Positions 23,241 to 63,214 of a stretch of DNA of 64,000 nt are shown here, in pieces. The position numbers and the translations under genes are program-made. The stretch lies in assembly GCA_036785375.1 (NCBI GenBank), contig JAWMAR010000079.1, positions 930,001 to 994,000 of the forward strand. The letters run 5' to 3'. Positions within the stretch are counted from its first letter, which is position 1, and every line of letters begins with the position of its first letter. A model generated the notes under the pieces. That model ran no database searches, had not been told where the DNA came from, and worked only from the letters and a program-made list of their open reading frames with translations. This DNA comes from Leucoraja ocellata. Taxonomy: Eukaryota.

Positions 23241-24989
23241 AACATCAAGCTTGGTTGAGTCGAAAGCAAAGTCAGGCAGAAGCAATCAATATCACATAAC
23301 GAGAATCGTGGATATCCCAACAGAAGGCGTTCTGTCCATCGCATCCATGCGCGTTTCATGAATGAGTTACCTAATATTTTCTCAAAGACCTGCAAACGTT
23401 GTACCTTCAAATATTTGTCCAATGCATGATTCATTAACCGTGCAATGGTTAAAATTCTTGCCTGTACTGATACTAGATGGGAGTGAAAGAATAAAGCCTT
23501 ACTAGTCTTTTTGTGAATCATAAACTGGGACAACCCCCCTTCACCCAGATTACTTTGTAGCTCATAATCCTGCACTCACCACTTAGTTTAGAGATACAGC
23601 TTGGATACAAGTCCTTCAGCCCACCATATCCATGCCAACCATTGGTCACCATTCACACCAGTTCCATATTATGCCACATTTGCATCTGCAGCCTCCACAC
23701 TCGGATCAATTTTACAGTTTCAAACTAACCTACAAACCCACAAGTCTTTGGGATTAGGAGGAAACCAGAGCACCCAGAGGAAACGAACAGAACATCAATG
23801 GCACTGTTGCCAATGTCATATCTCCCACCATGTTTTGTCCACTCATCACTACTGTGCCTGCTGGCGGTTCCCCACTCAGTCAATCCTCGGTATCACTGAC
23901 CGACACCTTCAGCATCAATGGCAAAGGCCAGACTGATTCAGTATAATTTACAATGTGTGGGAATGAGCTGCCTTAAAGGAAGTTTGGCTCAACACAATCC
24001 ATAATCGCTTCCTTCAGTCAATCACACGGAAAAAGGCCCTTCGGCCTCTTGCCTTTGCCGACCAAGAGGTCCCATCCATGCCAGTCCCACCTGCCCCATA
24101 TCCCTCCAAACCTTTCTCATCCATGTACCAGTCCAAAGGTCTTCCAAGTTTTGTTTTAATTTCTGCCTCAACTACCTCCTCTGACAACTCATTGGATATA
24201 CCCACCCTCTATGTGAAAAAAGGTGCCCCTCAGGTTCCTCTTAAGTTTCCTTGATCACCCTGCGTCCTAGTGTGCCCAGCCTCTCCCTATAGCTCAGTGC
24301 AGTATGACCATTAGGTGGGACTAGTATAAATGTGGAATATTGGTCAGTATGGGCAAAATGGGCCAGTTTCCATGCTGTATAACTATGACACAGGCCTGCA
24401 AGTGCTGGTAAAATCCGCACAAATCTCTGCGCTCTTTCCAGCTTAAAGACATTGAAATATATATTTTTTTCCTGCCAACATGGACAAGATGAAAAATCTG
24501 TGCAATTATACTGCTCTCTTGAGGCATGCTCAGTTGTACTATTGTTCCCAATATTCGAAGATGTTTCCCCCATCATCAACACCATGTGCATTGCCATTGA
24601 CTAAAATTTCAAAAGACTAGCCCCATTTCATCTGTCTTAGATGGGTGACATCTTGCATTCAAACAGTGACCCTTGATTCCTGACAAGAGGAAACATTCTC
24701 TCCCTGTCCACCATATACATATCCCTTAGGATCTCTTGTGTTTAAAACAAGACACAAAGTGCTGGAGTAACTCAGCAAGTCAGGCAGCATCTCTGGAGAA
24801 AAGGAATAGATGGTGGTTTGGGTCGCGACCCTTCTTAAGACTATCCTTCTAGAGAAATTTGGAAACAAAAAATCAATGCATCAACTGCCCCACTAGCCAC
24901 TTCTTTACAGACCCTGGGATGGTCCATCAGGACTTGGAAAATTGTCATCACAACACCTCCAGTTGCGTCTGTACTCGATGTGTCAGGGC

Positions 24990-25051
24990 TGGCAGACCCG
25001 GAAGTTTAGCTTGTAGCAGTCTTGCAGCTGCGGCAGCGTAATGGCTGAAGG
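24990..25051 (+). promoter_or_regulatory. CIAO2A core promoter / 5' UTR with ETS (GABPA-type) site and upstream ATG
   Basis: CCGGAAGT at 24998-25005, about 50 nt upstream of the ATG; out-of-frame ATG at 25041. Confidence 0.55.
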
Positions 25052-25175
25052 ATGGAAATAGTCTCTGGGCTTGCGTCCTTTGCCCTGGCAAAGTTCCTCT
25101 TTCTTTCGCGGCTATCAATTAAAGAAGATGCGGAGAAAATCAGAAAAATGGAAGAGAAATCGCTAGAAGTCTATG
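25052..25175 (+). CDS. CIAO2A: Cytosolic iron-sulfur assembly component 2A, exon 1 (124 nt)
   Basis: MEIVSGLASFALAKFLFLS...MEEKSLEVY resembles human MQRVSGLLSWTLSRVLWLS...MEEKALEVY; donor G|GTAAGG. Confidence 0.95.
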
Positions 25176-26555
25176 GTAAGGATTTATGCTCCCAGCATAA
25201 ATTGGTCGTAGTTCTGTGGACAGTCAAATTGTTGTCGTAAACTTCAGCTCATCATAGGACAGTTTTACAACTTTTACAAGAACGATACTTGTTCTTTATC
25301 AGTCACTCGAATGCAGAAGTTGGTCAAAGAGGTCGACTTGGAACATTTATAGACACTGCATTTGGGAACTGGCACAATCGATCATGTTTGAAACGACAGA
25401 ATAACACCACTTTTAAATATATTTTCGAAAGCATAATGGTACCTCACCCTTGATGATGCCTTTGTACATGGCAAATATGTATATTCCTATCAACTATTTT
25501 ATTTATTCGTTTTGGGGATCTGGACATCACTGACAAGATCAGAGTTTATTGCGCATCCCTGATTGCACTTGTGGGGGGCGATTTAGCTTCCAGAACCACT
25601 GCAATCCGTCTGGAGTTGGCATAAGTGTTCCAAGATTTCGACACAACAGCATTGAAGGACTGGCGATGTGTTACCAAGTTATGATGGCATGCAACTTGGA
25701 GGGAACGTGCAGAGTTGATGTTCCCATGCACCAAACGACCTTGTCCGTTTCAATGGTAGAGGATATGGATTGCAGTGGAGTAATGGTTCCCCAAGTCATG
25801 TGATCCAACTGATAGCCACATTGTTTCAAAGAGTTACACGTTAATGGCCTCAGTCAATTTAATGAGTCGTATCCAGCTATCATTTCGCAAATGCCAGCAG
25901 TGTTATTGCACAACAGGTAGTCGTTTAGTTACAAGGCATACTGATGGCTCGACATTGATCTCTCAGCATCGTGTTTATTCACCCACCAGGATGCACCACT
26001 ATCACCACACTCTCTGGCAGACGGTCCTGTCAGCTACTTGACCATTAACAAAGATTGCACAGATGCATATTCAAAGCTGACAGTCCTCCCAATGAGACAT
26101 GCTGAAGATTGCACGACTCACTCCAAACAGTAGTATTGTGTTGATTAACTGAATGGAACTGAAATGACTTTGTTCCAGAAATCCACAATATGCAGGGGAC
26201 ATTAAGCCAATTTGGTTTGATGCAGACTTTGTGCTGAAATTGCCCCAACGTTTATTAATCATTTATCCTATTCATGTAAATAATTAATGAACACAGTGTA
26301 CAAATGACAAATAAAGGTTTGATACAACTACCTCTGCTGTTACTGAGCATACTAAGAACTCTCAGTAAATAGCAGCAACTCTGGAGAAAACAGACAAGTG
26401 GCGTTTCGGATCCAGAAGAAGTTCTTGACCAGAAATGTCACCTTTCCATTTTCTCCTCAGAGATGCTGCTTGGCCCACTGAGTTACACCAGCATCTGCAG
26501 TTCATTTGTATTATAAAAGTAATCCATTGTAGTTGGTGTCTCTCTTCTTTATCAG

Positions 26556-26720: not shown

Positions 26721-28635
26721 GTGAGTGAATAAAGAAACTTTATTTCGGTGAAATGAATGGTCCCGACCAAAAGCATTGTCTGTCCATTTCCTATCATGGA
26801 AGCTGCCTAACCTATCAAGTTCATCCAGCAGTTTGTTTAACTGTACTTCAGTAGCAACTTTCACAGACTCAAATCTCACAAAAAAGACTAAAGCACTTGA
26901 AGGTCAGGCAGCATTTATAGATAGAGAAGCAGTTAATGTCAATCATTTTGCATCAATTCTACATAATGCTGCAAGACCTACTGAGAGTTTCCAGCATTTT
27001 CTGGTTTATTTCAGATCTGCAGTTTTAAAATGTTTCAATTGAGAGAACTGTTCCTCTTTGAATTAGTGCCATGAAATAATTTTCACCTAGAAAGGGACAG
27101 GGCCTGTGCAAACAATTCCCCTGAAAGATGGCATCGCCAGCAATAGAGCATTCTCAAGGTATTGTCATAGATTCATACAGCATGGAAACAGGCCCTTCTG
27201 CCCAACTGGTCCATGCCAACCAAGATGCCTCATCTATGCTGGTCACATTTAACAGTGGTTGGCCCAAATGCCTCACAACCTTTCCTATTCTTCCCCATGT
27301 CCTGAAGAGTCGGGTTAGAGTTCATGTTTGTCTCTTGAATAGGACTGGAATCCACAACCAACAAACTTGGGAGCAAGTGTTATTCATTGCGCTTTGGGAG
27401 TGAGAAGGGTTGCAATAAACTTATCTTAGGTATCTCCTTAGTTGTCCTTGGTTAGCATGTCACTAGCCTATCAACAGGTTGCTTGTCCATAGAACATAGC
27501 ACAGTATAGCACAGAAACAGGCCCTTTGGTCCATAATGTCTGTGCCAAACTTGATGCCAAGATAAATTAAATCTCTTCTGCTTACATATACAATTCATAT
27601 ATACCTCCATTCCCTGTATAACCATGTGCACATCTAAAAGCCTCTTAAACATCACTATTGTATCTGCCTCCACCACCACTCCTGGTTGAACATTCCAGGC
27701 CCCCACCACTCTCTGTGTAAACAAACCTTTGCTCCCCATCACCTTAACGTTATGCCCTCTGGTCTTTGATATTGTCACCATGGGGAAAAATGGTTATGAC
27801 CGTCCACCCTACCAATGTCCATCTGGTATCAGGAGAAATGAATGTGTGTGGAGACTAGGAAAATGGGGAGAGAGAGTACAGAGTCTCTTGCTCATTGGCA
27901 AAACTTTTCTAAAACAGAACTTCTACCAGATCTGCTGTACTTATCCATTTTCTTAAAATAATGCAGATCAAGGTCCTGGCAGGAGGGGTCATGTAATACT
28001 ATCAATAAACTTTTAATTCTGCCACCCCACTCTTATCAGCACTCAGTGCTGTTTCCACGCTTCTGCATTTGGGATGTTTCCTGATAGCAAGGGTTGATGA
28101 GTCATTTATCTACCTTGACACACGATGTCACCATTCTTTCATCCTCCAAAAAGAAAACTCTTAAGACTCATAGCTGGGTGCACTGCATTCATTTATTTTA
28201 TTTTATTTTTTTTAAGTTGTAGGATTCTCAGTAGACCAGAGTCAGAATGGTTTCATTCTTTACCATTTAAATTTGATATTACACCCAGATATAAAACATG
28301 CAATGACTAGAAAGTTGTAAACTTAAAAACAAACAAAAAAAATAGATTAATGCATGAAAATAAAAACGTCAGTGTATGGGGAACAAACTAGGAGTGATGG
28401 AATGGGACTAGTTGGCTCCGTCAGAAAACACGAGCTGAATGGCCTCTTCCTGTACTATTTAATCCTATAATTCAAAGCGTATCAGCATTCATCTGTTGAA
28501 TATAGTACTGCTCAAGCTGCATGAAGTCCAGGCGTCCAATTATAACCATAAAGAAAAGAGAATCTTATGCAGGCAAACTCCATTTACTAATTTGGTTGTA
28601 TAGAGCAGCTAAAATCACACAATAATATGTTGACG

Positions 28636-29045
28636 ATAGATACAAAAAGCTGGAGTATCTCAGCGGGTCAGGCAGCATCTCTGGAGAAAAGGAATTGTGA
28701 CATTTTTGGTACCTTCTTCAGACTGAGAGTCAGGAAAGGAAAACGAGGGATATAGGAAGTACATAGAACAAATGTATGAAAGATATGCAAAAAGCAACGA
28801 TGATCCAGGAAAGGTGGAGCCCACAATGGTCCATTGTTGTCTGTGGGGTAGATGATAACAAGTTATACAGACAGTGAAACTCAACAGGACGACAGTGAAA
28901 CTAGTACAACGGAGGAGGGACAGAGAGAGAGTGGATGCAAGGATTACTTGAAATTAGAGAAATCAATATACATATGTCTGGGTCATAAGCTGCTAAAGTA
29001 AAATACGAGGTCCTGTTCCTCCAATTTGCTTTTGGCCTCACTCGA
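28636..29045 (-). mobile_element. Penelope-like element 3' end joined to the hammerhead-bearing terminal repeat
   Basis: Endonuclease C-terminus (SEAKSKLEEQ...DFSNFK*) contiguous with the ctgaagaagg...gatgctgcctgacccgctgag repeat. Confidence 0.8.
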
Positions 29046-31206
29046 GGATTGTCAATAGCATCACAATGATGGCATTCAACTCTAACCTCAGTTCTTCATA
29101 TAGATAACATTGATGTCAACATAGGAGAGGTGATTGATTCTGTTTGGACGAGGTTGCTAAAGGCGTTCATGAATCTCTTGGCTTCACCTGTGGGTCAAAG
29201 TTTCAGGCTCACAGGAGAGATTGGCAGGAAAATAAATGGCGAAGAACATACCCCATCTTTTGTAAAAGAAAAGTTGGTGAATAAGATCTCTTAATCTTCC
29301 AGTAGTGGCTGTTTGGATAGTTCTGGGCAAGTGGACATCCAGTGGTGAACTGTGTGTCTAAGGTACAACTCTGCTCTCATGTCAGTTGAAACAATTTTCC
29401 ATTTCTCCTCCATTTTCCTTCATTCCCACACACTTCAAGAATCCAGTTGTCAGGGTGATTTGCTGACCCTTACTGAAATCCTAACAAAACAGATTAAAAA
29501 GGATGCTGTTTGATTTCTTTGTGGCATTAATGCCACAGCATTGAAGCTCAGCTTTGAGCAGGTGTCAGTCGGTAGCCTTCCCAGCCTCTCGTTTCTGTTT
29601 GTAAGATTCTGACCTTCCTCGATCAGAGTTAACCTAATTTTATTCTGTGCTCAGAACTGTCACTCTTCGATGAACAAAATGGGGCTCCAGTTCCTGCAGA
29701 TTCTGCTTCCCGTTTCATCGTTGTAGCAGGTTATGACCCACGCTAAACTATTTCAAGTAATTGTCTCAGGTTAAAAGGTTGGAGGTCAAAGGGCATTGAA
29801 TTAAGTTTCTTGTCAGGAGTTGAAAGTATTTTCGCACAGTTGACCATCAAAGCTTTTCTTCCTCTGAATAATCCATTGATGAAACCAATTAGTTGTTGCC
29901 ACGGCATGGGAACCAAGAAACAAAGAAAAGCTTGGACGTGTATTGTGCCTTTTATGGTGATGGGGCACCCAAAGCTCTTTATTGACAAAATACTTTTTGA
30001 AGTCACTGCTATGATTTAGGAAGTCCACCAACCAATCTGTGCAAGCAGGATCCTACAAACAATAAGATGTTAATAACTAACGGAATTAATAGTGGGGTAA
30101 ATATTTACCAGGAAACCGTGGGGAACTGCCTTGATTCTTTACAAAAGAATGCAGTGCAGTCTTTTTATACCCACCTGCAAGAATAGACATGGCCAGTGTT
30201 TAACAACTCATCCAGAAGAAGGTACTTCCAACACTACATACATACGACTCTGCAAGTCATTTCTCAAATTAATGGATGCACTCGACATGGATGTGCTCAG
30301 GTGAACTGAAACCATTAAAGGATTAGTTTGGACAAGATATGCTTTTTATCCTGGTCACTAATCCCTAGTTTTATTGATCCAATAAAAGAGGCATTTGAAC
30401 AGAGATTGCTTGCTCTCCAAGTACTGTCACCATAATAATAGTCTTTCTTGGGACAGTATTGGGAAGAGTCTTGGTGCAACAGGTGCATGGCAAGGTTGCC
30501 ATCTTCCTCCCCTTGTGACAATGCAGCACTCCCGTGGCCCTGCGCTGTATTTATCAGCATGAAGCCTGCTGTTATGCTTTAAATGTGAAAGAAGTTGAGG
30601 AAAGATTGTTTTGGCTGGGCACCAGGCTGCAGTCCCATCTCCAGGGTTCAGCTTGGATCCACTGAACACGCTGCTGAAATTCTTCCAAGTTACCAGTATG
30701 CAAGGGACCAAAGTAAACTTGGCCATCCTTTGTATGCCCAGGTCGCACAAGTGTGCCTAAAACACCAATCTTGCCAAAATGCAGGAAATGGAAGTTGTAG
30801 GATTGTATTCACAAGTGTGGTCTTAGTCTGGATTTGTAGACATTTTGAGGACCTGCATTCTTGTGCTGGTAAATGGCAAAGGGGATTAGATCTGCAGTTT
30901 TTACAGTCACTTCTCATGCATCATTCCTCTTAAGAGCACAGCACCTCAGAACAAGTTGTGCTCGATATTAACTTTGGGCAGCATTCTCCAGCCAATCCCA
31001 TTGGAAGTGCAAGTGAGAATGGGATCATCTCTGCCATCGTAGAGCTTGCAAGGTCTGAAGGAATTTGGTATCATGGGGACTGAACCAGTAAACTGTCAAA
31101 GCCTTTAAAAGATGAAAGCTAAATGGCAACGAAGGAATTAACTTCTGTGAATGATATTGCTTGATTTTGCACAATGTTTATACAATTATTGTATTTATAC
31201 TTGAAG

Positions 31207-31256: not shown

Positions 31257-32915
31257 GTAAGGAGAAATGGCTTTTTGATCGATCCCTCTAGTCGTTATTA
31301 AGAAGGATCCTTGACAATCGAGTTTGCCAATGGAGTTTTAATTTCTCTGGAGCTTTCAAAATCTCTCAGCTCTAGTTTAGACAGTCAATGTCAAACCTCT
31401 GTCACAGCTTGATGATATGGATGGATCCAAGCAGCAGGTCAAGGTCCATCGTCATAATCATAATTAGGAATTAAAACAAAATGTAAGAGAAAGGAAGGGC
31501 CTACGGCAGTTCTTGGGAAAGCACGAGTTCCGATCAGTAGTTTGTTTGAGGGTAATATCATCTGAACTCACTGGCCTTCAGTGAGATGTAGACACAAGAG
31601 ATTGCAGATGCTGAAATGTTAAGCAAAAATAAAACACTGCTGGAGGAATTCAGCCAGTCAGGCAGCATGCGTGAAGGAAAATGGACAAATGACATTGAGG
31701 CACAACTTTTCTTTGGACTGAAGAAAAACTCTCACCGGATAAGTCATCTGTCCATTTTCCTCCAAGATGCTGCCTGATATGCTGAGCTCTTCCAGCAGTT
31801 TGTTCGGGGGATGTACTTTGGAATGGGATTAGACATTGAGCCTGTTCTACTGTGTTGATCTATATCATCGAGTCATTTAGAACAGAAGAGGCCCTTTGGC
31901 CCATCACGCCCACAATAACTTACGTTGATCTATTCCAATTCCATTTGTCCCTCATTAAGTCATGGCCTTCTGTGTGTTGACAATTGAAATGCGATAACTG
32001 GTTAATCCAACAAAGTGCTTTGGTAGTTGATTTCTGTTTATATCTTCTCTGACCCGATTTCACTCTTCCCGTTGTATCATCCATATAGACTCCCCCCCCC
32101 AACCTATATTCATCTCATGTTGCCTTGTTTCTATGACGTCGGAATCACACACAAGAACAAATTTGGTAATTTCTTTCTGCAGTTTTACACATCATCTTTC
32201 TCCCTCCACTTCCTGCATGTATGTATATCCTACCTAGAGAATAATCTTTTCTCAATTCACTTAGACATACACATTCAAAGTCTCAGTTACCCAATGTCTG
32301 ACATAATTATTCAACACGGCATTCGTGTCACTACAAGTCTGCTCAACCAAACTCGCATTCACCCTTGCCATTTTCCTCAAGTGACTCCTAATGTTCCTAA
32401 TCCAGTACCTGCTTAGCAGAAATTGATTCCATCCAACTTTGGGTATGATCAAAACCATTTTCACAGTCCCAGTAAGAAACCTCAGTTCATAGCCATCAAT
32501 TCAGTTAAGCAATTCTTCCGTGTTAACAATCTTATCCTTAATTTCAAATCCCTCCATAACCTCACTCCTCTAATCTCCAACTACAACTCCCCAGAATCTC
32601 TGCAAATCTCCAACTTGGTTGGAGACCTCATGGTTCTCCAAGAACAGATTTGCTATACCTGAGCAACTACTGTATGACTATATTTTCTTACTGCCTTTGT
32701 CTGTGTTAGCCCATACCTGTCGATTAGAGTTTTTTCCCCAGCTTTAAAGATTAAGACAGACTTTTACTTGAGCCTTTCATGGCAAACTCTGCTCAGTATC
32801 TACTCAGATTCAATTGGTAAATTCCCCCTGTAACATGGTCATCTGTATTACTTGTTTTCTGTTTTGACTGTCATTTCCTTAAAAAGTTGTCCGATTGCTT
32901 ATTGACCTTGACGGA

Positions 32916-33230: not shown

Positions 33231-33539
33231 CCTAAATCTGAAGCAATACAACATAATACAATACGGTTTTATTCATCACATTGCACATAAAGTGCAAGTG
33301 AAATGAATTTGCCAGCAGTGGTACAATGATAAAGAACACACAATACACAATAAAAATGTAACACAAACATCCACCACAGCATTCATCACAGTGGTGGAAG
33401 TGACAACATTTGGCCAGTCCTCCATTAGTCTTTTCAAAGTTGCTGCCCGACCCGAATATTCTCAGCACTTTGTTTTTGTTTTAGATTTCCAATATCCGCA
33501 GTCTTTAGCTATTTGATTGACATGAGTGTTGTTTTACAG

Positions 33540-33585: not shown

Positions 33586-34612
33586 GTAAGTATGTTTTAA
33601 TTAGGCTTTGAGGGATTTGATTTTTATCATTAAATAATGATAAATGACCCAGTTCACCCACGCTCTATTCCCTAGTTTAAAAACTGTTGTTTATCATCAC
33701 ATGTATAGGGCATTGAACAGAACTCTCCATTCTGTTCAGCTGCACGCTGCAGATTGCAATCGTGAACAATTACTTTATGCATCATTCAAGTAAAAATTTT
33801 ACCTCAAATCTTAAAGCTGTCAGATTATCGCTCACCTTTCAATACTTTGTAGTTACTGGGGAAGGTCATCAACTGTAATAATCTTGGATATGTGTAATCC
33901 TAACTATTCAAATGGAGAAAAATGGAAATTAATGCCTAAAAATAAACATAAATCGCATGATTGTGGCACAGAAGGAGACCACTCGCACCATCCCGTCAAT
34001 GCTGGCTCATCTTTGTTTTGTCAAAATTATCAGCTTTTAAGTTTGCCGAACATTGTTTTAATTACGTAGGAAGGAACTGCAGATGCTGGTTTAAACTGAA
34101 GAGAAAAAAAAAAAATCTACATTTCAGTTGCTATCAGAAGGGCAAAATGGGGAGACAGATATCCTTGGTAAATAAGGCAAAAAAGAATCCTAAAATGTTC
34201 TATGTATACTGGGACTGGCAGAGGTCGGCACATTGTTTGGCATGGACAATTTGGACCAAAGTTTCTATGCTTTATCATTATGACCCTAACATCATTGTGT
34301 CATCCAACTAAGTAGCATTAACCATTTGTAGACCAGGCTATTTATTGCATTAGGGGTTGGTGAACAAGGTTGAGTACAGCTAACGCACATTTTGTTCCCC
34401 GTTTGTTTTTAATGGGACTGTTTGCCTGTAGCTTTTGGATTTGTCACGGCATAAATGTTGACATTGTTGTATGTGGTGGGTGGTTTTCAGAAATAGGCTC
34501 CAATGCCCTGTACTGATGAGACAAAATACTGCCTTGGGTATTTAGATTTGCTGAAGGCAGTTTTCACCACATGTTGCTGATTCCCCCTCATTTCTTCTTT
34601 TTTTTTTTTAAG

Positions 34613-35000: not shown

Positions 35001-35006
35001 ATTAAA
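35001..35006 (+). terminator. Candidate polyadenylation signal (ATTAAA) of CIAO2A
   Basis: ATTAAA about 290 nt after the stop, followed by T-rich sequence. Confidence 0.45.
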
Positions 35007-38000
35007 TCAGTATTTTTTTATAGAATACAAGAGATAACACTGAAGAATGTCAGCCACTGAGCTGAATTGTTGTGATCCCAGCAATAGGAGAGGAAAGGTA
35101 TCGGACCCCTTTTGGTCCCATCATACCCAATCAAAAGGGAACGCAGTCTCAGGCACTTCTTACAAAGCTGTATGGTGGTTGAAAGAAAATTTAAAAATGC
35201 TAAAAGTGTTCAGCAGGTTAGGCAGCATCTGTGGAGAGAGAACTGGTTAATGTTTCAGATAGCTGACCTCTCATGCTGCTGACTATTTCTCAGCATCCCA
35301 ATTTCTCAGCATCCCAATTTCAGATCTGCAGTGTTTTATAGGCTCTATGGAGTGATGTGAAAGGATTGCATGTGAATATTAACATTGTATATTTATGAGA
35401 TTTGGTTCCCGAGGCCTGGGTCCAGCCACTGTATCCAACGTTATGGGAACAGACTATATATCACTGTATACACTATATATCACTGGCCTAAGTGCTCTGT
35501 GAGCCATCTTCCTGGTTCCAATTCTTGGTACCCCTCAGGGTCTCCCAGTGCTAGGGGAACAGCTAGCTGTTGACACGGAATGGGTAATTTCCCAACCTTC
35601 AATGATATAGGCAGTGACATTACCAGAGAACAAATATAAAGCTTGATACCAAATGATGGCATCGAAGCATACCTGAACACAAGGTTGTTTTGCATCTTAA
35701 AGCCCACACGTTGTGCTTGCAATACAGAAGTGGCCAAATAGCACGTGGATACTGATATTTGAGAGATGCATTTCCACAGATGCCATGATTGGGCCCAGGT
35801 CTGTCCACAGTGGCCACTGGATAGCAATCAAAAACAGAGATTGATGACTTTACCCCTCAATCCAAGGGCAATGATACCAATGGTCCTCCCCCAACAGGAA
35901 CTTGGACCTCCCAGTCTTCATGACTTGCTGGTACTGACCGAGTTGCATGGCTGAGATGCTTCAAACTGAAAGGGCTTCTCCCCACCAGGTTAGCACACAC
36001 TCAGGTGGTGTTTGTAACTTCAGCAATTAGTGGAACTGAACTTCCTGCCATCCCAGTACATTGTCCTGCTTCCCCTTTTTAAACTTGCATTTCAACTTTT
36101 GTCATTGAACAGTAGATGAAGCCCCACTTGGTGCAGAACTGCACCCTCGTGTATCCAGCATTCCCATCAATACCTGTTGACTGTTTGTCTCAACTATCCT
36201 GTGTATGGCTGTCAGTTCTATATTTTTGTAGGTCTGAGCATTCAGTTTTGAATGGTTTACCTGCAGGGGTTTCTATCAATTTGGGATTAAAGATGCTTTG
36301 CACTGAGCCATGGTTTCAATGTAATTACAATGGGAGTATTTTCCAACTCAATAACTTCCAAGATGTCACATCTGCTTATCTTACATTGAGTTTCTAAATC
36401 CTACTTACTGAAGGGATTGCAAACCCATGTCTCACTGTTCTGTGGTGCCATTTAATAAAACAGCCCGATCTTCTTACTTTACTACACCTACCATGTGGAG
36501 CTCAGTATCCACATCAGTCTGGTACATTCAACAATCACCCACAGCCCCGGAGGCTGGAGAATTCCAAGGATTCCAAGACATTTCTCATCCTGACTTCTAG
36601 CCAGAAATAAACATTGTACCCGCACTTTCGCAGTCTTTCTGCAACCAAGATACTTTCTCTTCATTGTTCCTTCATTTGTTCTCTCCATCTAATTCTTGGC
36701 CATTAATGACTCCTCTCTATCCCAACACTTGAACCCAAATATCATCAACACATTTCCTTCCATACAAAGAATGATTTGTGCCCAGAATTCACTCGCTCAC
36801 AATCTACATTTACTTGCATTTGTACATGTAAACACCTCAATGCCCACCAATAAAATTCGATCCCAATTCGTGCAAGGAGAACATTTGGAGCAGATGTCCA
36901 GAAGCTTGTTTAAAGGATTAAAGAGTTTGTTCAAGAGTAGAAAGGACAGAGAGAAATTTAGAGAGGAAATGAAAGGGGTTAGAGCTGGTTTAAGTGAAGA
37001 CATGGCCTCCAATGCTGATGTAAAAATGTCCAGGAGGAACAAGAGGTTAGGGTTGGAGTGACAACAAAGGGTTGTAGAACTGGGGAAAGGGAGAGGGGTT
37101 AGAGATTACAGAAGGATGGAAGAGTAGGGTTGAGGATAGAGGCTTTTATAGAACCACGTGCAGTTGGATCATGAAACCACACCATTGAGATTATGAACCA
37201 AAACTTGGAGCAACTCAGGTCAGGCAGCATTTATGGAGGAAATGAACAGACGCCATTTCGATTTGGGACTCTTCTTCAGCAGTCTGATTCATGCTCACAA
37301 TTCCAGCATCTGCAGTCACTTGTGTCCTCATTGATTCAATGGAATGGTTTTGTTGTTTTCTTTGTGTGTCCCACTATGGTCCACTAAAGTACCTTTCCCT
37401 CCGTGAGGAATTGTTATACTCTTATCGTTTGTAAGTTCATAACTGCACTGCACCCCATTGCTTGCTCTCTTGATTTCCATCTGTAGAGTGGTTTCCCCAG
37501 TTAGCCCCAGAACACAATGGTGAAAGTCTGGAAATCTTTGATGCTACTATTCACATGCATTTCCCCATAGAATTAAACATTTTACCCCCTCTCCAATCTT
37601 TGCACATCCCCAATCCTTTCCACTCGTACTTTAAATTCCTGTATCTTGTGTTTTATGACTGCTGGCAGATCAATTTCCCTCCTGGGATAAATAAAGTTTT
37701 ATCGTATCGCAACTAATATTTATTTTTCTCCCATTTTAATTTTCAATTTGGGGAATTATATTTATGAAAATATGCATCGAAACAGACTGGTTGCCAGCTG
37801 TAATCCACTACCGAACAAGTTAAGTGTTCAGATTTATAAAACAACAAATTCACCGTCCACCACCCATCCAAATCCCAGTTAAGAGCCACCTCTTGTGTGG
37901 AGCCGGGCCAAGTGTGGAATAGGTAGACAGCTAATTAGTTAAACAGACATGTGTTGACTCAGGTGCTGGAGCTTGATTTACTGAACTGCCACTGGCCTAA

Positions 38001-46154: not shown

Positions 46155-46360
46155 TAATGTCAGGGGAGTGGATGGGACAGAGATAGAATCTCCGACTACA
46201 TTTTATCTCTGTACTGCCCACACCCCTGACATCAGTCTGAAGGGACTCGACCCGAAACGTCACCCATTCCTTCTCTCCAGAGATGCTGCCTGTCCCGCTG
46301 AGTTTCTCCAGCACTTTGTGTCTACCTTCGATTTAAACCAGCATCTGCAGTTATTTCCTC
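46155..46360 (+). mobile_element. Penelope-derived terminal repeat with damaged hammerhead core; further decayed copies at about 24750, 26380, 31590, 35195, 37200, 42800, 44810, 49160 and 56680-56925
   Basis: cagtctgaagggactcgacccgaaacgtcacccattccttctctccagagatgctgcctgtcccgctgag. Confidence 0.8.
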
Positions 46361-47563
46361 CACATTACAATCAAGCCATTCAGTGTACATATACACAAGG
46401 AATCTTGCTTGCTGCAGCACCACAGACAAGTACACAAATTACATATTTAAAAAATAAAAACCAAACCAAAAAAGATATTTATTCTAGACAAATTGGCATG
46501 ATTTATGGCAAGACGAAGGAGTGATAAAGGGGTCCTCAGGTGGAAGCTTTATTCAATGTACATTGCACGGCTGATATCTGGAACTCAGGTACAATCACTA
46601 CATTTAAGTGATATTCAGACAGGCATTTAAATAGGCAGGACCTAGAAGTCTATTGACCCAATCTTGGCAAATAGGATTAATGTAGATGGGCTAGAAGGTT
46701 AGCATGAACATGGTGTGACGAAGGGCCCGTTTCTATACTGTACAAATATCACACTGCGACACAGTGCCCATCTATTTCCTCTCAATCTCAATTCCTTTCT
46801 GCATTTACCTGCATTAGGCTAATCTACAATGGTGGATTAAACCACCAGCACTTTGGTATACGAGGCAGTGGGGGAGGGGGAAACCAACACATAGGACGGA
46901 ACCTATGCGTTCATTGGAAGAGCATACAAACTCCACAAGGACAGCATTGGAAGCAGGGATTAAACAGACAGCTGGAGCAGCGTGGCAGCAGCACTAAACA
47001 CTGTGCCACACTTACAAGAAGCTCAGCATGCAGAAGGATCACTCTGTCCCACATCTTCCTGAAGAAATAAGATCAGAGTGTGGCAACTCTTTGCATTCTC
47101 TTCCCACAGGAGGATGGCCCATCACCTGTTACAACAGCCCTACTCTTTTAAATCTCTTTTTCAACCATATGCTGTACTACCTTCCCCTTTGCTCCACCTA
47201 TTGTACTTACATTGGACATGATCATATTTATGTGTAGTATCATCTAATTCAATTGGATAGCATGCAAAAGAAAAATCTTCTCACTGTACCTTGGTACACG
47301 TGACAATAATAAATATGAACCACCCCACAGCCCTCATGCATTCTGCACTACGCGGGAGACACTGACTGGAGGAACAACATTAGCAGAGATAATGGGATTG
47401 CCAATCCTCAAGGGACAAACAGGAATTGAAATTTAATCTCAGGATTCTGCCAGAGGCCAAAAGCAACAACAGTAAAAGGTCATTCAGGCATGAAGATAAA
47501 AACGTCTGTTTTCCTTAAAAATGGGCTTGGAATACTTTCTAATTAAAAGTTAAGACAAATCAC

Positions 47564-50487: not shown

Positions 50488-50515
50488 GACGTTTCTGGTC
50501 AAGACCCTTCTTCAG
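50488..50515 (-). ncRNA. Minimal hammerhead ribozyme motif (helix II mismatch)
   Basis: Reverse strand CTGAAGA-A-GGGTCTTGACCA-GAAA-CGTC. Confidence 0.55.
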
Positions 50516-55095: not shown

Positions 55096-56240
55096 AAGGT
55101 TGTGAGTGCTGTAATGTAAGAACTGCAGAAGATGACTTGTAATACAGCAGATCCCATCCAAAGAAATGTGATAACGAATAGATAATCTGCACGATTGAAG
55201 ATCATAAAAACCGCTGAAAATCTGTGACATAGGAACAGAAAGCGCTGAGAATTCTCCGATGGTCAGCCTGTGTCTGTGGAGAGTAAAACTGTATTCATAT
55301 TTCAGGTTCATGACGTTCCATCAGAACCTGTTGTAATTGGGATAAAGATCGACACCGGGAATCATTCTCCATCTTTAGTCCAAGTCCCAAGGAGTATTTT
55401 CACGTCCTCAGCTTAATGCAACATCTGAAAGGTTCAATCAGAACCGCCCCTCCACTCAGTATTCCCCCTCTGACACTGTAACACTCACTCAGTGCCCAGG
55501 GCATTCTCACACAGCTCTCATGTCTAGACTGTGGTACTCATGAAATCTGGTATTTGCAGCCAGCACTGTGAGCATTCATATTTCTGCAAAACAAATTATT
55601 ATTTTTTGTTTCTTAAAAAATTTCAGGAAAATGTTTTAGTAATTTTCATGAAATCCCTCTCTCTGTTCTTTCACTTATTTGATCACACTCCAGAACGTGA
55701 GAGGAGAAATTTAACTGGATCGGGTTCATTTCCTTGTTGAAACATTTACCAAACGTCAAGCTTTCTTGATGTTGTGCCAGATATTCCTGAAAGCTTCTCC
55801 TGAAGTCGGCACGGTTTCCGTCTCAGGGGCTGATCAGGGAAATGCAGAGGCAGAGCAGATTGCATCGCCATTGCTCAGTAAGCAGGCGGTGCATGTGGAA
55901 AGCCCTCACAAATGGTCCCTTAAGAGCCGTGTCAGTGTGAACACGATCGCTTTTCCAGGAGTGGATGTGTAAAGACTCAAATGTTTGCCTGTGCGGGGCG
56001 TTTTGGGATTGCAAACTTTTCCTTGCTCCCAATACAGCAAACCCTCACAGCCTCCTGCCATTTAAATCCCTCTGCAGCTTCACCCTAGGTATCTCCGTAA
56101 CCCCCTCCAGGTCTCTGTGCTCTTCCACCCCTGTCCTTCTGATTAAGAAGGAACTGCAGATGCTGGAAAATCGAAGGTACACAAAAATGCTGGAGAAACT
56201 CAGCGGGTGCAGCAGCATCTATGGAGCGAAGGAGATAGGC

Positions 56241-56268
56241 AACGTTTCGGGCCGAAACCCTTCTTCAG
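56241..56268 (-). ncRNA. Minimal hammerhead ribozyme motif in an inverted-repeat mini-element (about 56144-56325)
   Basis: Reverse strand CTGAAGA-A-GGGT(TTCG)GCCC-GAAA-CGTT. Confidence 0.65.
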
Positions 56269-59060
56269 ACTGAGCTCCATAGATGCTGCTGCACCCGCTG
56301 AGTTTCTCCAGCATTTTTGTGTACCCTGGCCTTCTGATCATCCCTCAATGTGATAACATCGTCGTTGGCAACCCTGGCCCCAGTTGCTGAGGTCTCAAGC
56401 TCAGAAACTTCCCCTCCACCCCTCACTAACTCTTTTCCACACATTTTGATATTCTTTAAAGCGTGTCACTTTGTACAAACCTCTTGCCACCTGTCCTGGT
56501 GTCTCTGCAGCCAATCTCAGTTTTATCCAAATATCTTCCAGTGAAGTGCATTGAAACATTTTATTAAAATAAGAGTACGAGGCAAATGCGAGATGTTGGC
56601 ATTTTCTCGCAGCAGTAGAGGAATTCAATGGGGGAGGCAAGAATAGAGATTCTGTAACTGGTATTTGATTGCAAAACAAAGAGGCAAAGTGCAAGAGGGT
56701 CTGGCAGCATCTCTGGAGAACATTGATAGGTGTCATTTTGGAACAGGACCCTTGTTAATTTTAAAGATAGACACAATACTCAACGGGTCAGGTAGCATTT
56801 CTGGAGAAAATGGATAGATGACGTTTCAGGTCAGGACCCTTCATGTCACCATATGCTGCCTGACCCGCTGAGTTACTCCAGCATTTTGTGTACATCTTTG
56901 GTATGAACCAGCATCTGCAGTTCCTTTTTATTACCCTTCATCATTTTAATTTGTAAATGCGGTGGCTAAACAGCTAAAGGAGAATTCAGTGAAACTGTGC
57001 CAACAATTTTACAAAAGGATTAAAATTCCACATGTGTGAATCTTTTGAGGACCTTCCAGCAAAAACGTAACATCCATCCACTGGGTCTGTGAGCCAATGA
57101 CTCTAAATCAATGGATTCAACATCAGTAACACTCATTTATACAGTGCCATTGTGGTGGTAAAAACACACAGGCGAGCGCCCACTGAAGGAACCTGTCTCT
57201 GTGGAGTTTGCATGTTCTTCCTCTGATCTTGGGTGCTCCAGTTTCAAAGCCGTTTGATTTGGTGGGTTAATTGTCTACAGGGTTAAGTTGGGTAGTAAAA
57301 TCTGGGAGGCATTGAGGGGCAAGTAGGGGAAATAAAATGGGATTAACGTAGGTAGGAGCTCGATGGTTAGCTTTTTCCACTGGTGAATGACTTGAAGACT
57401 ACAGCTGACCATCAAAGGCACAAGAGCAATAAGAAATGGAAGATGGCCAGTGATAGCCACATCGAAGGAGACAATAAAAATCACTGTTACTAAATCCTGA
57501 GGCACAAAATCAATCTGCGACAATTAGGCTAAAGATTTTGATAAAACAAGTTTAATAAAAGAACTGTAAACATGTAAAAGTTGCCTGAACACTGAACCCA
57601 ACAGCCTGACTTAACATGCAAACTACAGGCAGGTCTCTGGACTACTCCTGGGACACAGCAAGATGGATACAAGATTTCTTGCCTGGCGAGAACTCAAATG
57701 GAACATCGGTGAGGCACGGATGAAGTTGGGAGAGGCTTCATGCTTGTCCTGGTTAAATGAGGGGGACAGAGCTGGATAATGAACTTTGTTCCACTTTATT
57801 TTGCATTTTAGATTTAGCATCAGGTATTTTCAGATTAGGTACAGCTGAGGTCAGAGGGAGAGGCAAATATGTTTCCCACTCTTTCTCCCTCAGGCAGTGC
57901 AGTGGCCCAGGTTCAATCTTGACCTCGGGTGCTGTCTGTTAGGAGTTTGCACGTTCTCGGTGTCACTGCACAGATTCCCCCAGGGTGCCCTGGTTTCCTC
58001 CAACCTGTGCTAGTTGGTTGAGTTGGCCACTGTAAATTGCACCCCCTCGTGCAGTTAGGTTGCAGAAGACTGACGGGAATGTTGGTGGGGATATGTGGGT
58101 GAAGCAGCTGTATACTAGAGGGACAAAAAAATAAGGAGGGAAAGGAATTGAAGAGATTATTCTGCTGCCATGGATTAGACAGCCTCCATTTGTGTTGTTT
58201 GTTAAACTCAAGGCTGGAAAATTTAAGGACGTAATGCACACAAAAGATTTAATGTTGTCTCAGGGAAGTATGCACTAGAGACCCAAATGCCATCAACAGC
58301 TGTTGTTCATGACCCTCGTTGCAATAAGACAGAGTATTTGCTTCTGTGGTAACATACTCCCACAAATACATGACTCAGTTCAGAGATCAGTGTGGCCTGT
58401 GCGCTGCTGCGTTCGGTATAAGTTGTGTAACGCTCCTTAAGTACTAGCACCACAGCTCCGTTTCCGGAATAATGCATGTTATTCAGAATGATACATGCTC
58501 AACTAAAACTTCTTAAAAGTTGAAATAAAATAGGTTTTTATATTTAAAAAAAATTGTTCAAGTATGAAAAGTTTCTGTGCTGTCCGGCAACACCAGGGAT
58601 GGGTTACAGGACACTTGTCAGATATGGAGCCCCAGGACACTCCTTCATTAACTCTCCGTCGCCGCGACACTTTCAGGGGAGGGCTGAGGTTGCGGGATCC
58701 AATGGCGAAGGTGTCATTCTTCAAACGACAAAGCACCAATTTTACTTGAAAGGACAACACGTAACCATAGCAACCACGGGTCTCGGGCCCAGTCCTGCAA
58801 CCCCAACCCTGTAAATCCTGGCAGCAATCAACAGCTGGGGTTGTTGTCCTGTCAAATGGTCGCATAAACAAGAATACTGAAAGAAAGTCTCTCTCATTTA
58901 TATCTATACATAAATATTAAAAAAACTTCAGATTTTCTTACACATCTTTCTTTTTTTTCTCCTGAATTGCTTCTGTGCCTTTCAGTCCCTGTAATACCTT
59001 CTCCCCATAGTTATTTTCTTAAAAAGTCTCTTGCTTTCTGCGTTGCACCCCCTTGGATGC

Positions 59061-59589: not shown

Positions 59590-59597
59590 CCATCCAG

Positions 59598-60410
59598 TGT
59601 TGTGATACTTGGAGAACATTGTTCAAGGTCGGCCCCGGCGTGCCGTGGTCATGCCCGACATCAGGCCCTGGCCTGCCCACCCCGAATCCTGGAGACCGCC
59701 TGTAGAGGGGGGGGGGGGGGGGTCACCGAGCCCAGCTTCTGCTCAACAGGAGGGTGATTAATGGAATACCAGTGGGCGAACCGGCTGTAGGAGGCAGTGC
59801 TGTGCACCTTGATGGTGGATTGGGCCACTGGAGGCCCAGCAGCAGACTGGGGTTTGGCTGGACCGGGCGCCTCTCCAAGAGGCCTAGCACGTGGACTGGA
59901 CACAGCCTGCAGCGGCACAGAGCGGTGGAGGACACCAACGGCCATTCTTGGCTAGACTGACCCTCCAACACTGCCAGGAAAACAGGCCTTCATCATTGTT
60001 AGGTTAAGAACTCTACAACTATAACAACTGAGACTTGAAAATGGCGCCATATCCGGCGACTCTCTATACTGTTTCAGTGTACTATTACTAGAGACCTAAG
60101 ATAGACACAAAAAGCTGTAGTAACTCTGAAGAAGGGTCTCAACCCGAAACGTCACCCATTCCTTCTCTCCAGAGATGCTGCCTGTCCCGCTGAGTTAGTT
60201 CAGCTTTGGTCTATCTTCGGTTTAAACCAGCATCTTAAACCAGTTCCTTCTTACACATATAGACCAACTGTATCTAAGATGCATCTAAGATGGATCTAAG
60301 ATGGATCTAAGTGCTTGTGAATAGTGATACTTTTATGGAACTGCATACAAAAATGAATCTCACTGGACCTCGCTGTGACAAATAAAGTAGAATTGAATAC
60401 CAGTGAATAC
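59598..60410 (+). mobile_element. GC-rich non-autonomous repeat with a Rex/L2-like tail, interrupted by a hammerhead mini-element; related sequence at about 22430-22705
   Basis: Shared tggcgcc..ggcgactct and aatctcactg...gtgacaaataaag motifs. Confidence 0.45.
60126..60153 (+). ncRNA. Minimal hammerhead ribozyme motif within a Penelope-derived repeat (about 60100-60255)
   Basis: CTGAAGA-A-GGGT(CTCA)ACCC-GAAA-CGTC. Confidence 0.7.
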
Positions 60411-62255
60411 CATTGAAGGGTTTTGACAGAGTACAGAACTGTTTCTGCTGATTAGAGGGCTGTTCATGTGCTAATAATCAGTGTATATTCCTGTTCTTAA
60501 AACTCTCCAGGCAACATCTGTTCTCACATCTGCTCTGCCCAAACCAGACAAACGTAAAACTGCATAAAACTTTACAAGTGGATGGAGCATACCTATTATC
60601 CCTTGTGTCCAGCTGAGGCTGAGCAGGTAGCTCTCTTCCTGTGTGTTAACCGCTTCAAGCTAGACACAGGGGTGCAGCAGGTAGTGATGCTTCTTCACAG
60701 TTCCAGTGATCCAGGTTCAATCCTGACCTGCAGTGCTGCCTATGTCTGTCTGCCATAGATTTGTAGAGTTACAGTCAAAGAGTCTTAGGGCATGGAAACA
60801 GGCCCTTCTGCCCAATGTGTCCATGCCAAGCGAGATGCCCATCTAAGCTTGTCCCATTTGCCCGCATTTGGCCCATATCCCTCTAAACCTTTCCTAACCA
60901 TGTTCTTCTCCAATTATCTTTAAAATGTTGCTATCCCTGCCTCAACTACCTCCACCCTCTGAATGAAATACTTACCACTATTAAATCATTCCCCTTTCCT
61001 ACAGCCCAACACGTCCATACTGACCAAGATGCCAACCTGAGCTAATGCCTGCATGTGGCTTGAATCCCTCTACACTCTACAAATCCCTCTACAAATGCTC
61101 TTAAAACATTGTAATTTCATTTACCTCTACAGGTTCCTCTTGTCCCTGACTGTATAAGGAACTACAGTTCCTGTGACTGTATAAATGGATACTGGTTTTC
61201 TCCCACATCCCAAAGAAGTGCGGGTTGTTAGGGCAATCGTATGGATGAGTGCAGTTGCAACTAAAGAACTCGACACCAGAGTGTTGTGGATATTGCCCAG
61301 TCCATCCCACAAACCAGTCTTAGATAGGTTGGTGAAATTTTCTTTGGCGCGTAGAAGTCTGAGGGGTGACCTTAGTGGAGATTGACCTTGTTGAGGTGTA
61401 CAACATCATGAGGGGCATGGATAAAGTGAAGGCTTGTAGTCTTTTTCCCACGATAGAGTATTCTAAAATTAGGGGGGAATAGGCTTATTGTGAGAGGGGA
61501 GATGTTTGAGGGACCTCAGGGGCAAACTTTTGAAAGGGTTGTCCATATTTGGAATAAACCAGCGGATGTTATAGAAGTGGGTACATGTTCGACTGCTAAA
61601 AGACATTTGGACATATATATGGGTAGGGTCATGAGGGATATGGGCCAAATGCAGGCGAATGGGACTAGTCAAGTTAGTCAACATGGACAAAGTTGGCCTG
61701 TTTCCATGTGGGATAGGACTATGGTCGAAAAGTCTCTTCACACACACTCTCCATGAGAGTGGGCCTCATATTTCTCTTGAATTTCTTCCTGGCTCCTTGT
61801 TCACATCTCACCTACTAGTGGACGAACCTTTGCTCCATCCACCCTGTCCAACCTTTCATAATCTCAAATAATTCTCCCAGTTCACCCACCAGTCCTCCCT
61901 TCACCAGAGAGAAGAGCCCCGGCCTGTTCAAAGTAGCACGGGAAGGGGAACAAGATCAAGAGGGTATATTTGTTGTGTGTTCCGGACAGCGTTACATGCC
62001 TTTTTTTGTAAACCAGCATCTGCAGTTCCTTGCATCCATATTGACCAGTCAACTGGACAAACTGATGTGACCAGCAAGGGACTTCTCAGGGATCAATAAG
62101 GATGACTAATGATCACCCAACAAGTACCTTTTATTGGGCACCAAGTACATGGAATCGTTCAGTCAAATACTCTACTCTTGTTGGATGAGAGCAGCTCCAA
62201 CAACTCAAGATACTCACAACAGGACAGGCAGCATCTCTGGAGAGAAGGAATGGGT

Positions 62256-62283
62256 GACATTTCGGGTGGAGACCCTTCTTCAG
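62256..62283 (-). ncRNA. Minimal hammerhead ribozyme motif (palindrome mutated)
   Basis: Reverse strand CTGAAGA-A-GGGT(CTCC)ACCC-GAAA-TGTC. Confidence 0.6.
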
Positions 62284-63214
62284 AGTGTCTTATCGTCGGT
62301 TTAAACCTTGTGTTCCTTCCTACACAACTCAAGATACTCATCATGGCCCAGGACAACACAGCCAGACATTCACACCCTGTCCACTGGTCTAAATGCTCAT
62401 TCCCTCCACCACTAGCTCAGCATTCCTTCAGTGTGAAGCAGCCATAATATATGCTGACTTTGACTGGTGATCTTACATGCAGAAGGACAAGCACAGCCAA
62501 GACATGAAAATGACCCCTAGTCACACACTAACCTGACTTGCAAATGTCATTTATTCATCCAAACTCTGCAACTCGCTGCCCAGCGAGTGGTTCAAATGGC
62601 CATGATTCTCAATTCAACGGGGAACTCCAGTGGAATAAACAAGAGCTCTAACTCAACACAGCAGCAGGACATGCTGCGCACAGCAAACGGCTTGATGATA
62701 GGAAAGGGGTGAGTTCCTGGCCCAGTGTATTGCTCTTTCACACAGAGCTTCAATCCCTTGTCAACAACTCGTTTTTTTGCTCCAGTGAACAGGAATTGTT
62801 GATTGCGTCCTGGCGGCTAAGCTGCAGGAGTGCAACGTTGCTTAGTAGGGGAACAGACAGTGGATTGAGCAAATCAGGTCAAGGTTCAGCAGTTAGTAAA
62901 TCCATGTGGTGCGCTCTGCTGAATTTATAGGTACAACGCTGTTCCTGCTTAAGTGCAGTAATTAATAGGAGAGATGATAATAAACTAGTCAGGACACTGA
63001 AGTACAATGGAAACTGCGCTGCAGACCGATAAAGAGGCAGTGTTATTGATCTGAAACGCAGCAACTCTTTGGGTCCTTTTGTTCTTCCTCAGCAAAATGC
63101 TTTCTTGCTTCACGCTGAGCTATGCATCTTCTTCCACGTTACCCATAGCTCTAGGCAGTTAATTAATCTCAACTCTGGCTCCATTGCAGCATAACAGAGA
63201 TGCAACTCACTTTA

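Follow-up and report, generated by a model that had tools for sequence, protein, structure and literature searches.

The 64-kb stretch of skate DNA analysed here (the window) holds many copies of a short repeat that carries the core of a hammerhead ribozyme, and this raises the question of whether such copies spread by themselves, through the ribozyme, or are made by a larger element. Minimal hammerheads that stand alone or lie on opposite strands, derived from truncated Penelope elements, have been known since 2014 (Cervera and De la Pena, PMC4209133), and the available portion of that paper describes mostly single motifs, ascribed to truncated elements, in thousands per fish, coelacanth or frog genome; the same portion names no cartilaginous fish and no common 5' start. 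The value of the present family is mechanistic, bearing on the copying mode of Penelope-like elements (PLEs) and on the role of their hammerhead.

A dense family of Penelope terminal repeats

An initial annotation had described more than a dozen copies of one repeat of about 130 bp within 24750..62320. With a model built from eight window copies, nhmmer returned 40 matches at E<=10 (31 at E<0.05) in the 64-kb window and zero in the reversed window, and merging nhmmer, blastn and tblastn gave 27 loci, which bears out the recurrence. Twenty-two of them lie in 24750-62323; the remaining five, further upstream (1616-20912), extend the family beyond the annotated range. Nor is the unit uniform in size, the inserts between target-site duplications (TSDs) measuring 91, 92, 107, 126 and 180 bp. 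All family counts rest on this single 64-kb window, in which there is one insertion per 2.4 kb and entire insertions are often just 90-240 bp long. Pattern scans of metagenome, prokaryote genome and viral contigs gave 0 loci.

The ORF is absent from 24 of the 27 loci. At the other three, all on the minus strand, tblastn places a GIY-YIG end directly upstream of the repeat: 1616..2489, an internally deleted copy with a broken ORF end (1762-2489; Cys-rich linker and GIY-YIG), a 3' UTR and a decayed terminal repeat whose hammerhead core is deleted; 5993..6747, with a GIY-YIG end (6228-6747), UTR and decayed core; and 28632..29051, which has the last 35 codons of the ORF (28947-29051), a UTR of ~220 nt, a 5-nt deletion in the core and no tail. 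Pfam searches with the window's ORF fragments alone, 28947-29051 included, gave no match, and a word-index protein search and the ESM Atlas returned nothing for them. The fragment 28947-29051 matches relatives of the longer remnant 1762-2489, which carry a YIG motif; nine of the 25 relatives scanned match Pfam GIY-YIG at E<=0.1, one of them above the curated cut-off, and those that are named are elasmobranch proteins (full HMMER search). We conclude that the repeat represents the pLTR (terminal repeat) of a Penelope-like element from elasmobranchs, in agreement with the earlier proposal that the copy at 28636-29045 is fused to a GIY-YIG C-terminus, and that as a repeat the family is ordinary, belonging to a known Penelope-like kind.

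No RT domain is reached in the window's 5'-truncated copies, and the parent element is therefore not seen whole. A Cys-rich stretch at ~2150-2130 is intact in the relatives P0007, P0040 and P0031, and a Cys-rich linker ahead of a C-terminal GIY-YIG is a feature of the Neptune/Nematis type (Craig et al. 2021, bioRxiv 2021.04.23.441226). This stretch, decayed in the window copy, may correspond to the Zn-finger-like linker between RT and EN in that clade. The best-preserved solo subfamily has no ORF-linked copy in the window; 28721 is 80-90% alike to its members. An old copy at 5678..5860 (minus strand; upstream limit approximate) retains a pyrimidine-rich UTR and a decayed core.

The hammerhead core decays neutrally

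The pattern CTGANGAAGGGN5-14CCCGAAA matches three times in the window (56268-, 60126+, 62283-) and never in 100 shuffles. Judged by its sequence features, the motif is a minimal type I hammerhead, as had been proposed. It shares with the metazoan PLE motifs, as far as the available text of PMC4209133 describes them, an extra base after A9 (between 9 and 10.1), the G10.1-C11.1 pair, a short helix I, a palindromic helix III (15.2-16.2) that lacks a loop, and pairs on opposite strands; helix II has 4-5 bp here, against 7-8 bp in the schistosome families treated in that text.

The full core (CUGANGA, 4-bp helix II, GAAA, UH) is intact in three of the 23 arms examined, and the CG palindrome in two of these three; positions of the core's C3 were set by hand and a few may be off by one, the affected arms being broken in any register. 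Four copies had been named as best preserved, among which 56268, 60126 and 62283 hold up, while 50515- has ACCA in place of RCCC and a broken G10.1-C11.1 pair; the CGTC/CGTT ending given for 62283- is likewise imprecise, as this copy reads GAAATGTC, not CGTC. Helix I had been called very short and is: 1 bp at 60126 and 62283 and 2 bp at 56268, with 53.6% of cells paired across the alignment and its 5' strand missing from most copies. Helix I has 2 bp in D. virilis (PMC4209133), within a class range of 2-5 bp.

Conservation was compared between the core and the rest of the repeat. At non-CpG sites substitutions reach 10.0% in the core and 10.1% elsewhere, which rejects an excess conservation of core bases; over all sites the core is, if anything, more decayed (21/114 changed, against 79/690 elsewhere) because it contains two CpGs. 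The hammerhead core thus decays neutrally, at the background rate. Helix II is 82% paired, well above slid controls, among 14 decayed copies; in the same copies, which give low power, covariation of the hammerhead helices does not exceed shuffles (0.196 against 0.183 shuffled; 150/500). An Rfam scan of the window gave no hammerhead family at E<=5, its best match (56193-56307) being a fold-back stem. In the read consensus of two abundant subfamilies the core is kept from G5 or from helix II onward, the ends of the consensus being loose.

No support for retrozyme-like mobility

The initial annotation had further suggested independent, retrozyme-like mobility, which the data do not support. Animal non-LTR retrozymes (PMC7229834; Li et al. 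2026, bioRxiv 2026.07.22.740005), reported also in one chondrichthyan genome, resemble our family in having a type I hammerhead, a derivation from PLE pLTRs and dispersed monomers; they differ in that their definition rests on hammerhead-bearing units in tandem, the motifs being mostly canonical, and on circular RNAs. The window shows none of these features. None of the 20 tandem rows of the window consists of units with complete hammerheads, and the cores of the one partial tandem (56694-56845) are broken. The copies begin before the core and continue through the uncut GUC/GUU site. Because tandem arrays are absent and the cleavage site is passed uncut, these copies are probably not retrozymes. 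A start at the cleavage site was considered and rejected: of the arms with a downstream start, none comes close to it except the old pair at 26899-27020 and perhaps the 56847 arm. Hammerheads of PLEs reportedly cleave as dimers (Luense et al. 2017); dimers in cis were rejected here, the intact same-strand cores lying 6 kb apart.

Duplications, tails and fold-back loci

Solo copies with TSDs of their own were found at five loci. The highest score among 150 random pairs was 9; of the 25 loci tested, four exceed it, with 11, 13, 14 and 17, one more equals it, and 20 give no TSD above the null. Three of the five are solo stubs: 44812..44937 (plus strand, 126 bp, tailed; 13-bp TSD at 44799-44811 / 44938-44950, one mismatch), 49157..49247 (plus, 91 bp, tailless, start at +6; 16 bp, one mismatch) and 50423..50514 (minus, 92 bp, tailless, starting at C3, the closing pair of helix II broken; 11 bp, one mismatch, borderline). 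The other two are fold-backs with arms on both strands: 56144..56323 (180 bp; 15-bp TSD), whose minus arm has a tail and an intact core (C3 = 56268, triplet GUU), and 62217..62323 (107 bp; exact 17-bp TSD), with a near-intact core in the minus arm (C3 = 62283) and a plus arm made of the tail with an internal deletion. Solo copies are therefore separate insertion events in their own right, bounded by TSDs of 11-17 bp, compared with 8-10 bp in Adineta vaga (PMC3846280).

On their 3' side the copies stop at one of two fixed points, which differ by a tail of ~35 nt. In all eight fold-back loci tested the tail is on one arm only (chance at most 0.5^8 = 0.004), tail scores being above the 99th null percentile at six loci, two of which supplied tail queries, and above the 95th at two. 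Besides the two fold-backs above, arms on both strands occur at 26362..26507 (plus arm with a core-edge start and tail), the old 26899..27020 (both arms begin downstream of helix II; plus-arm tail weak), 31598..31803 (core-edge start in both arms, quasi-palindromic junction, minus-arm tail), 37198..37325 (long tailless minus arm from C3 at 37279, short tailed plus arm), 56694..56930 (short tailed plus arm, with the broken partial tandem arm at 56694-56758) and 60097..60258 (plus arm with tail and intact core, C3 = 60126, GUC at 60151-60153). By eye only, a ninth fold-back with a one-sided tail can be made out, the old locus 35194..35337 (both strands) having a tail-bearing inverted arm. At 37279, 56845 and 62283 either arm has sequence that its partner lacks; one self-folding cDNA is therefore impossible there and two primings are needed, and these three loci exclude self-priming fold-back as the general origin of the inverted loci.

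This architecture resembles that of EN+ PLE insertions (bioRxiv 2021.04.23.441226; PMC3846280), which likewise show head-to-head arms, TSDs, palindromic or microhomologous junctions, an inverted 5'-truncated copy and a one-sided tail of 30-40 bp; the short whole insertions and their high density, given above, set our family apart.

A common 5' start at the edge of the core

Twelve of the 17 callable long arms begin at -6..+6 from the first base of the core, whereas the rate of stops further upstream predicts 0.6-2.6 (P 1e-14 to 4e-7; by-eye calls underlie several of the 5' ends). The solos are thus not simple, random 5' truncations, their starts piling up at one point, and the same start recurs across several subfamilies of different age. 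Solo stubs at 24750..24842 (minus; start at ~-3, core broken, tailless) and 42801..42899 (plus; GUU subfamily, inside another repeat) begin at or near the core edge, as apparently, and tentatively, does the old stub 20826..20912 (minus). The tailed stub 46222..46366 (plus) extends ~14 nt into the UTR and has a 3-nt deletion in its core. Starts are tentative for the old stubs 26752..26837 (plus; core broken), 45052..45127 (minus) and 55235..55330 (minus). Two short tailed stubs, 8790..8869 (minus) and 33429..33510 (plus), begin downstream of the core, and 34068..34113 (minus) and 62009..62042 (plus) consist of the tail only.

The start adjoins a TCAGT that resembles an initiator and lies three bases ahead of the core. 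CTCAGT agrees with the consensus of the human initiator (BBCA+1BW), a six-letter degenerate motif that is weak alone; following a pyrimidine tract, the same letters also read as a splice acceptor. Tract and CAG precede the core in two families, and the Penelope element of Drosophila virilis has the end of an intron exactly here (PMC4209133). Bulk RNA reads drop ~8-fold across the boundary (1499 to 182), as measured on a copy with a core deletion and local mismatches; the drop is just ~3-fold in a single-cell run and 2-fold in DNA contigs. Over a decayed copy, neither of two RNA runs shows a pile-up of read starts or ends, the libraries being of a kind that loses small circles. The single-cell run shows a strand bias, which priming on A-rich antisense stretches could cause and to which we give no weight. 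In the openly accessible papers covered we found no elasmobranch description and no fixed 5' start. The common start likely marks where the copied RNA begins.

Discussion

We consider it probable that the repeats are inserted copies of the terminal repeat, made when the parent protein primes inside the front repeat of an uncut mRNA and runs off the start of the RNA. The unit copied would be a terminal repeat of 90-130 bases from a Penelope-like retrotransposon with GIY-YIG, whose protein would prime reverse transcription in the repeat at the mRNA front and run off the RNA's start. The two 3' ends, with and without tail, may correspond to the pair of internal sites at which the anole element primes, and at fold-back loci synthesis would proceed from both cut target strands, short microhomologies then serving to join the two cDNAs. 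The common 5' start would be transcription initiation at the TCAGT, and any role of the hammerhead would lie in the RNA of the parent, the scattered copies being inert.

The anole element, Poseidon PAc studied in vitro (Frangieh et al. 2024, PMC11167929), offers a model for these steps: in the part of that report available, it primes internally at two tail-defining sites, both strands are cut and extended, RNA downstream of the priming site is required, and uncut RNA is inserted whether the hammerhead is functional or not. Its two 3' ends are likewise separated by ~35 nt and fall some 100-130 nt 3' of the hammerhead, on an uncut template; PAc is of another clade (Poseidon), and run-off stubs with a fixed 5' end are not described in that part.

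If copying started instead at the 3' end of a full-length Penelope RNA, the stubs would be 5'-truncated copies and their common start a block to reverse transcription, imposed by a bound protein, by a splice-acceptor complex or by the base of a hairpin in which the core is masked. Plain truncation does occur, as the shorter stubs and tail-only pieces show, and pyrimidine tract and CAG stand before the core in both families; predicted folds pair the core with a downstream pyrimidine tract in a hairpin that begins at C3, and in the four best copies this makes them 4.6-7.6 kcal/mol more stable than the best core-free alternative. However, a polymerase going 3' to 5' would reach the other foot of this hairpin first, its z-scores are -0.9 to -1.2, hairpins of the cDNA are weak (-3 to -8.7 kcal/mol), and its covariation, not above shuffles (254/500), was rejected; we regard such a block as unlikely. 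Somewhat less likely still is a short non-autonomous master, SINE- or retrozyme-like, with its own transcription and moved in trans by the Penelope protein. Fixed ends, own TSDs, the preponderance of ORF-less loci and the lack of an ORF-linked copy of the youngest subfamily in the window would suit it, as would a terminal segment whose depth in four runs is 17-47 times that of the ORF end, a ratio of contig depths, which are no copy numbers, for a segment common to several subfamilies. Against it, tandem arrays are absent, units are not delimited by cut sites, most copies lack the 5' strand of helix I, the core is neutral and without covariation, and the closest same-strand intact cores are 6 kb apart; moreover, the young-subfamily member 46237 extends into the parent's UTR, and one start in several subfamilies of different age is unlike the outcome of a single master. 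That solos are leftovers of longer insertions after deletion or recombination, as solo pLTRs without TSDs have been explained in Adineta vaga (PMC3846280), would accord with the 20 of 25 loci without a TSD above the null and with the internally deleted 1616 copy; with TSDs directly bounding five short loci, and as recombination between repeats would retain upstream UTR and not yield head-to-head arms with a single tail, we hold this to be very improbable.

For run-off copying, the dense family with its fixed 3' ends, one-sided tails and sharp start lets the anole in vitro model face genomic data. More tentatively, and with somewhat less than even confidence, most PLE insertions could be "strong-stop" by-products, run-off cDNAs of 90-135 nt that end at a cap three bases before the hammerhead. 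If so, elasmobranch genomes would preserve a very dense fossil record of the start site, of both priming sites and of priming on two strands, and the hammerhead, as the first structure in the mRNA, would normally be masked within an inactive hairpin. If the common start is indeed the cap site, it would account for the excess of solo minimal hammerheads over full elements in animal genomes, and there would be no need for independent, ribozyme-driven mini-elements.

Repeat copies and their link to Penelope-like elements

We searched the window, and the reversed window as a control, with a repeat profile built from eight copies. The search returned 40 matches at E ≤ 10, with 31 at E < 0.05, and none in the reversed window. 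Together with blastn and tblastn it resolves 27 repeat loci in the 64-kb window, one per 2.4 kb, in line with the initial annotation's count of more than a dozen copies; 22 of the 27 fall in the range 24750..62320 proposed there and five lie upstream, so that the family is wider than stated. The strict core pattern occurs three times in the window, as opposed to none in 100 shuffles, and an Rfam scan of the window left the motif undetected.

The ORF stretch from which a GIY-YIG end had been claimed is only 35 codons long and unrecognised by Pfam. A longer ORF remnant is present at 1762-2489, a 64-residue piece of which has 90 relatives at E ≤ 0.001. Pfam reports GIY-YIG at E ≤ 0.1 in nine of the 25 relatives scanned (one above the cut-off), and a Cys-rich linker, described as a mark of Neptune/Nematis elements (Craig et al.), precedes the YIG motif in those whose sequences were inspected. 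Of 10 relatives looked up, 8 come from little skate, whale shark, a stingray and a sevengill shark, which makes an elasmobranch host likely. By tblastn, the relatives match three repeat-linked places (1762-2502, 6228-6747 and 28926-29069), and therefore 3/27 loci are linked to GIY-YIG ORF ends, upholding the suggested Penelope origin; no ORF-linked copy in the window reaches the RT. Five predicted elasmobranch proteins (P0001, P0007, P0032, P0038, P0083) join Penelope GIY-YIG pieces to unrelated domains (GPCR, NYAP, RTP, DUF4518), most likely as gene-model artefacts from intronic copies.

A sharp 5′ start at the core edge

Taking the longest arm (repeat copy) per locus, 17 arms extend into the core and have an end that could be called, and 12 of these stop at -6..+6 of C3, the first base of the hammerhead core. 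Most of these ends are set by a target site duplication (TSD), by the junction of an inversion or by a host repeat that can be recognised, and some were called by eye. One other arm stops at about -14 and four extend 90-800 nt upstream. The upstream stop rate predicts 0.6 stops in this interval (P = 1e-14), or 2.6 when upstream lengths are capped at 100 nt (P = 4e-7). Five more old arms, apparently starting at the core edge, were excluded as uncallable. Starts downstream of the core edge occur at five loci (8790, 26899, 33429 and two pieces consisting of the tail, an extra ~35-nt 3′ stretch).

Depth of the terminal segment versus the ORF end, on a decayed reference and with contig depth not equal to copy number, is 38x in X1, 42x in X4, 47x in X24 (bulk RNA) and 17x in X22 (single-cell). 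With the same two limits, depth drops across the core's edge 8-fold in X24, 3-fold in X22 and 2-fold in contigs; no pile-up of read starts or ends was found on the decayed reference. The CTCAGT beside the start fits the initiator consensus BBCA+1BW (PMC5287114), placing +1 at -3, a match that is weak alone and also readable as a splice acceptor.

Insertion anatomy

TSDs of 13, 16, 15 and 17 bp (scores 11-17) exceed the null maximum, a score of 9 among 150 random pairs, at 4 of the 25 loci tested; a fifth locus has an 11-bp TSD with a score equal to that maximum, and 20 of the 25 have none above it. Repeat 3′ ends form two classes ~35 nt apart. In all eight fold-back loci tested (two head-to-head arms), the tail is on one arm only, with six loci above the 99th null percentile, two of which supplied the tail queries, and two above the 95th. 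A ninth one-sided tail is visible at 35194-35337. This is the layout published for Penelope-like elements. At 37279, 56845 and 62283 the tail is on the short arm and the core on the long arm; therefore neither arm was copied from the other, and two priming events are needed. For PAc, the anole Poseidon element, cutting and extension of both target strands are described, as are two internal priming sites that define the tail (PMC11167929).

State of the hammerhead core

The motif fits the minimal hammerheads described from Penelope-like elements, with an extra base after A9, a G-C closed helix II and a palindromic, loop-less helix III (PMC4209133). According to that source (Cervera and De la Pena), each fish, coelacanth or frog genome has thousands of them; they are mostly single and probably from truncated elements, with some opposite-strand pairs, and have low activity even as dimers. 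The kind is already known. Our literature search, with supplements, subscription papers and repeat databases outside it, found no elasmobranch description and no fixed 5′ start; supplementary figures S2-S4 in PMC4209133 could be relevant here.

Animal retrozymes are described as tandem units with one hammerhead each, whose linear and circular RNA runs from cut site to cut site (PMC7229834; Li et al. 2026). The window holds no tandem array of the repeat, the copies begin ahead of the core and pass through the cut site, and in most of them flanking DNA replaces the helix I 5′ strand. On these grounds the copies are not retrozymes, and the retrozyme-like units that had been proposed are not supported.

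An intact core (CUGANGA, 4-bp helix II, GAAA, UH) is present in 3 of the 23 arms reaching this region (60126+, 56268-, 62283-); 50515-, also listed as best preserved, lacks the G10.1-C11.1 pair. Helix I, already suspected to be short, measures 1-2 bp. Among nine young arms compared with the majority base, one core column being dropped as a gap, non-CpG sites differ as often in the core (8/80) as elsewhere (64/636; P = 1.0), so excess core conservation is not seen; at CpG sites the values are 13/34 and 15/54. Across 14 arms, helix II is 82% paired, exceeding slid controls, and covariation of the hammerhead helices is not above shuffles (150/500). The predicted fold of the best copies pairs the core with a downstream pyrimidine tract, with weak z-scores and no covariation support for this hairpin. 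The best reading of the scattered copies is that they are inert. In the read-level consensus of two abundant subfamilies, helix II and GAAACGTC are retained and loop II and the downstream flank vary, a weak sign that the motif persisted in the parents.

The neighbouring copies 44812+ and 46237+ share the sequence CTGAAGGG, in which one GAA of the core is missing, through either a still mobile dead-core subfamily, repeated slippage, or truncation in 44812. A head-to-tail derivative of the repeat, 66 nt long (joint 28688 to 28649), has GAAACGTC without CUGANGA; it is represented by 1158 bulk RNA reads with 193 starts and by DNA contigs from two runs, does not occur in the window, and is likely a minisatellite that arose from the repeat.

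Other features of the window

Spatacsin (SPG11) exon-like stretches lie on the minus strand at 1418-1600 (E = 1e-15) and 13390-13760 (E = 3e-4), and a GC-rich island at ~22.7-23.2 kb may be the SPG11 promoter. The five repeat loci below 21 kb are all on the SPG11 sense strand. A near-perfect palindrome with ~30-bp arms (14805-14892), giving several sub-threshold miRNA models, is possibly a small inverted-repeat element. LINE ORF remnants lie at 21654-22181 (minus strand; 175-codon open frame, no Pfam match), which we take to be CR1/HER1-like, and at 18994-19427 (plus strand; matches an RT piece). At least two other abundant short SINE-like families, presumably HE1-like, occur window-wide (e.g. 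4028-4154, 14221-14347, 45927-46068, 47843-48045), and the 42801 stub sits within a copy of one of them.

Origin of the fixed start

Whichever of the four explanations of the common start holds, it is near certain that the repeats are Penelope terminal-repeat insertions. A block to reverse transcription at the core edge would place the stops there, and we consider it a less probable, though serious, candidate. Somewhat less probable still is a non-autonomous master from which the stubs come, and it is very improbable that they are deletion remnants.

We moderately favour a run-off account, in which mRNA start, internal priming and fixed-end stubs are taken together. An internal promoter is described as driving transcription of D. 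virilis Penelope from within its upstream repeat. PAc priming is reported to be internal, slightly more than 100 nt past the hammerhead, to require RNA further downstream and to use uncut RNA as template, with templates shortened at the 5′ end giving shorter products (PMC11167929). On the run-off account, the elasmobranch parent mRNA would start just ahead of the core, and priming within the front repeat would yield run-off cDNA of 90-135 nt with a fixed 5′ end. Full-length copies would then require a tandem repeat downstream.
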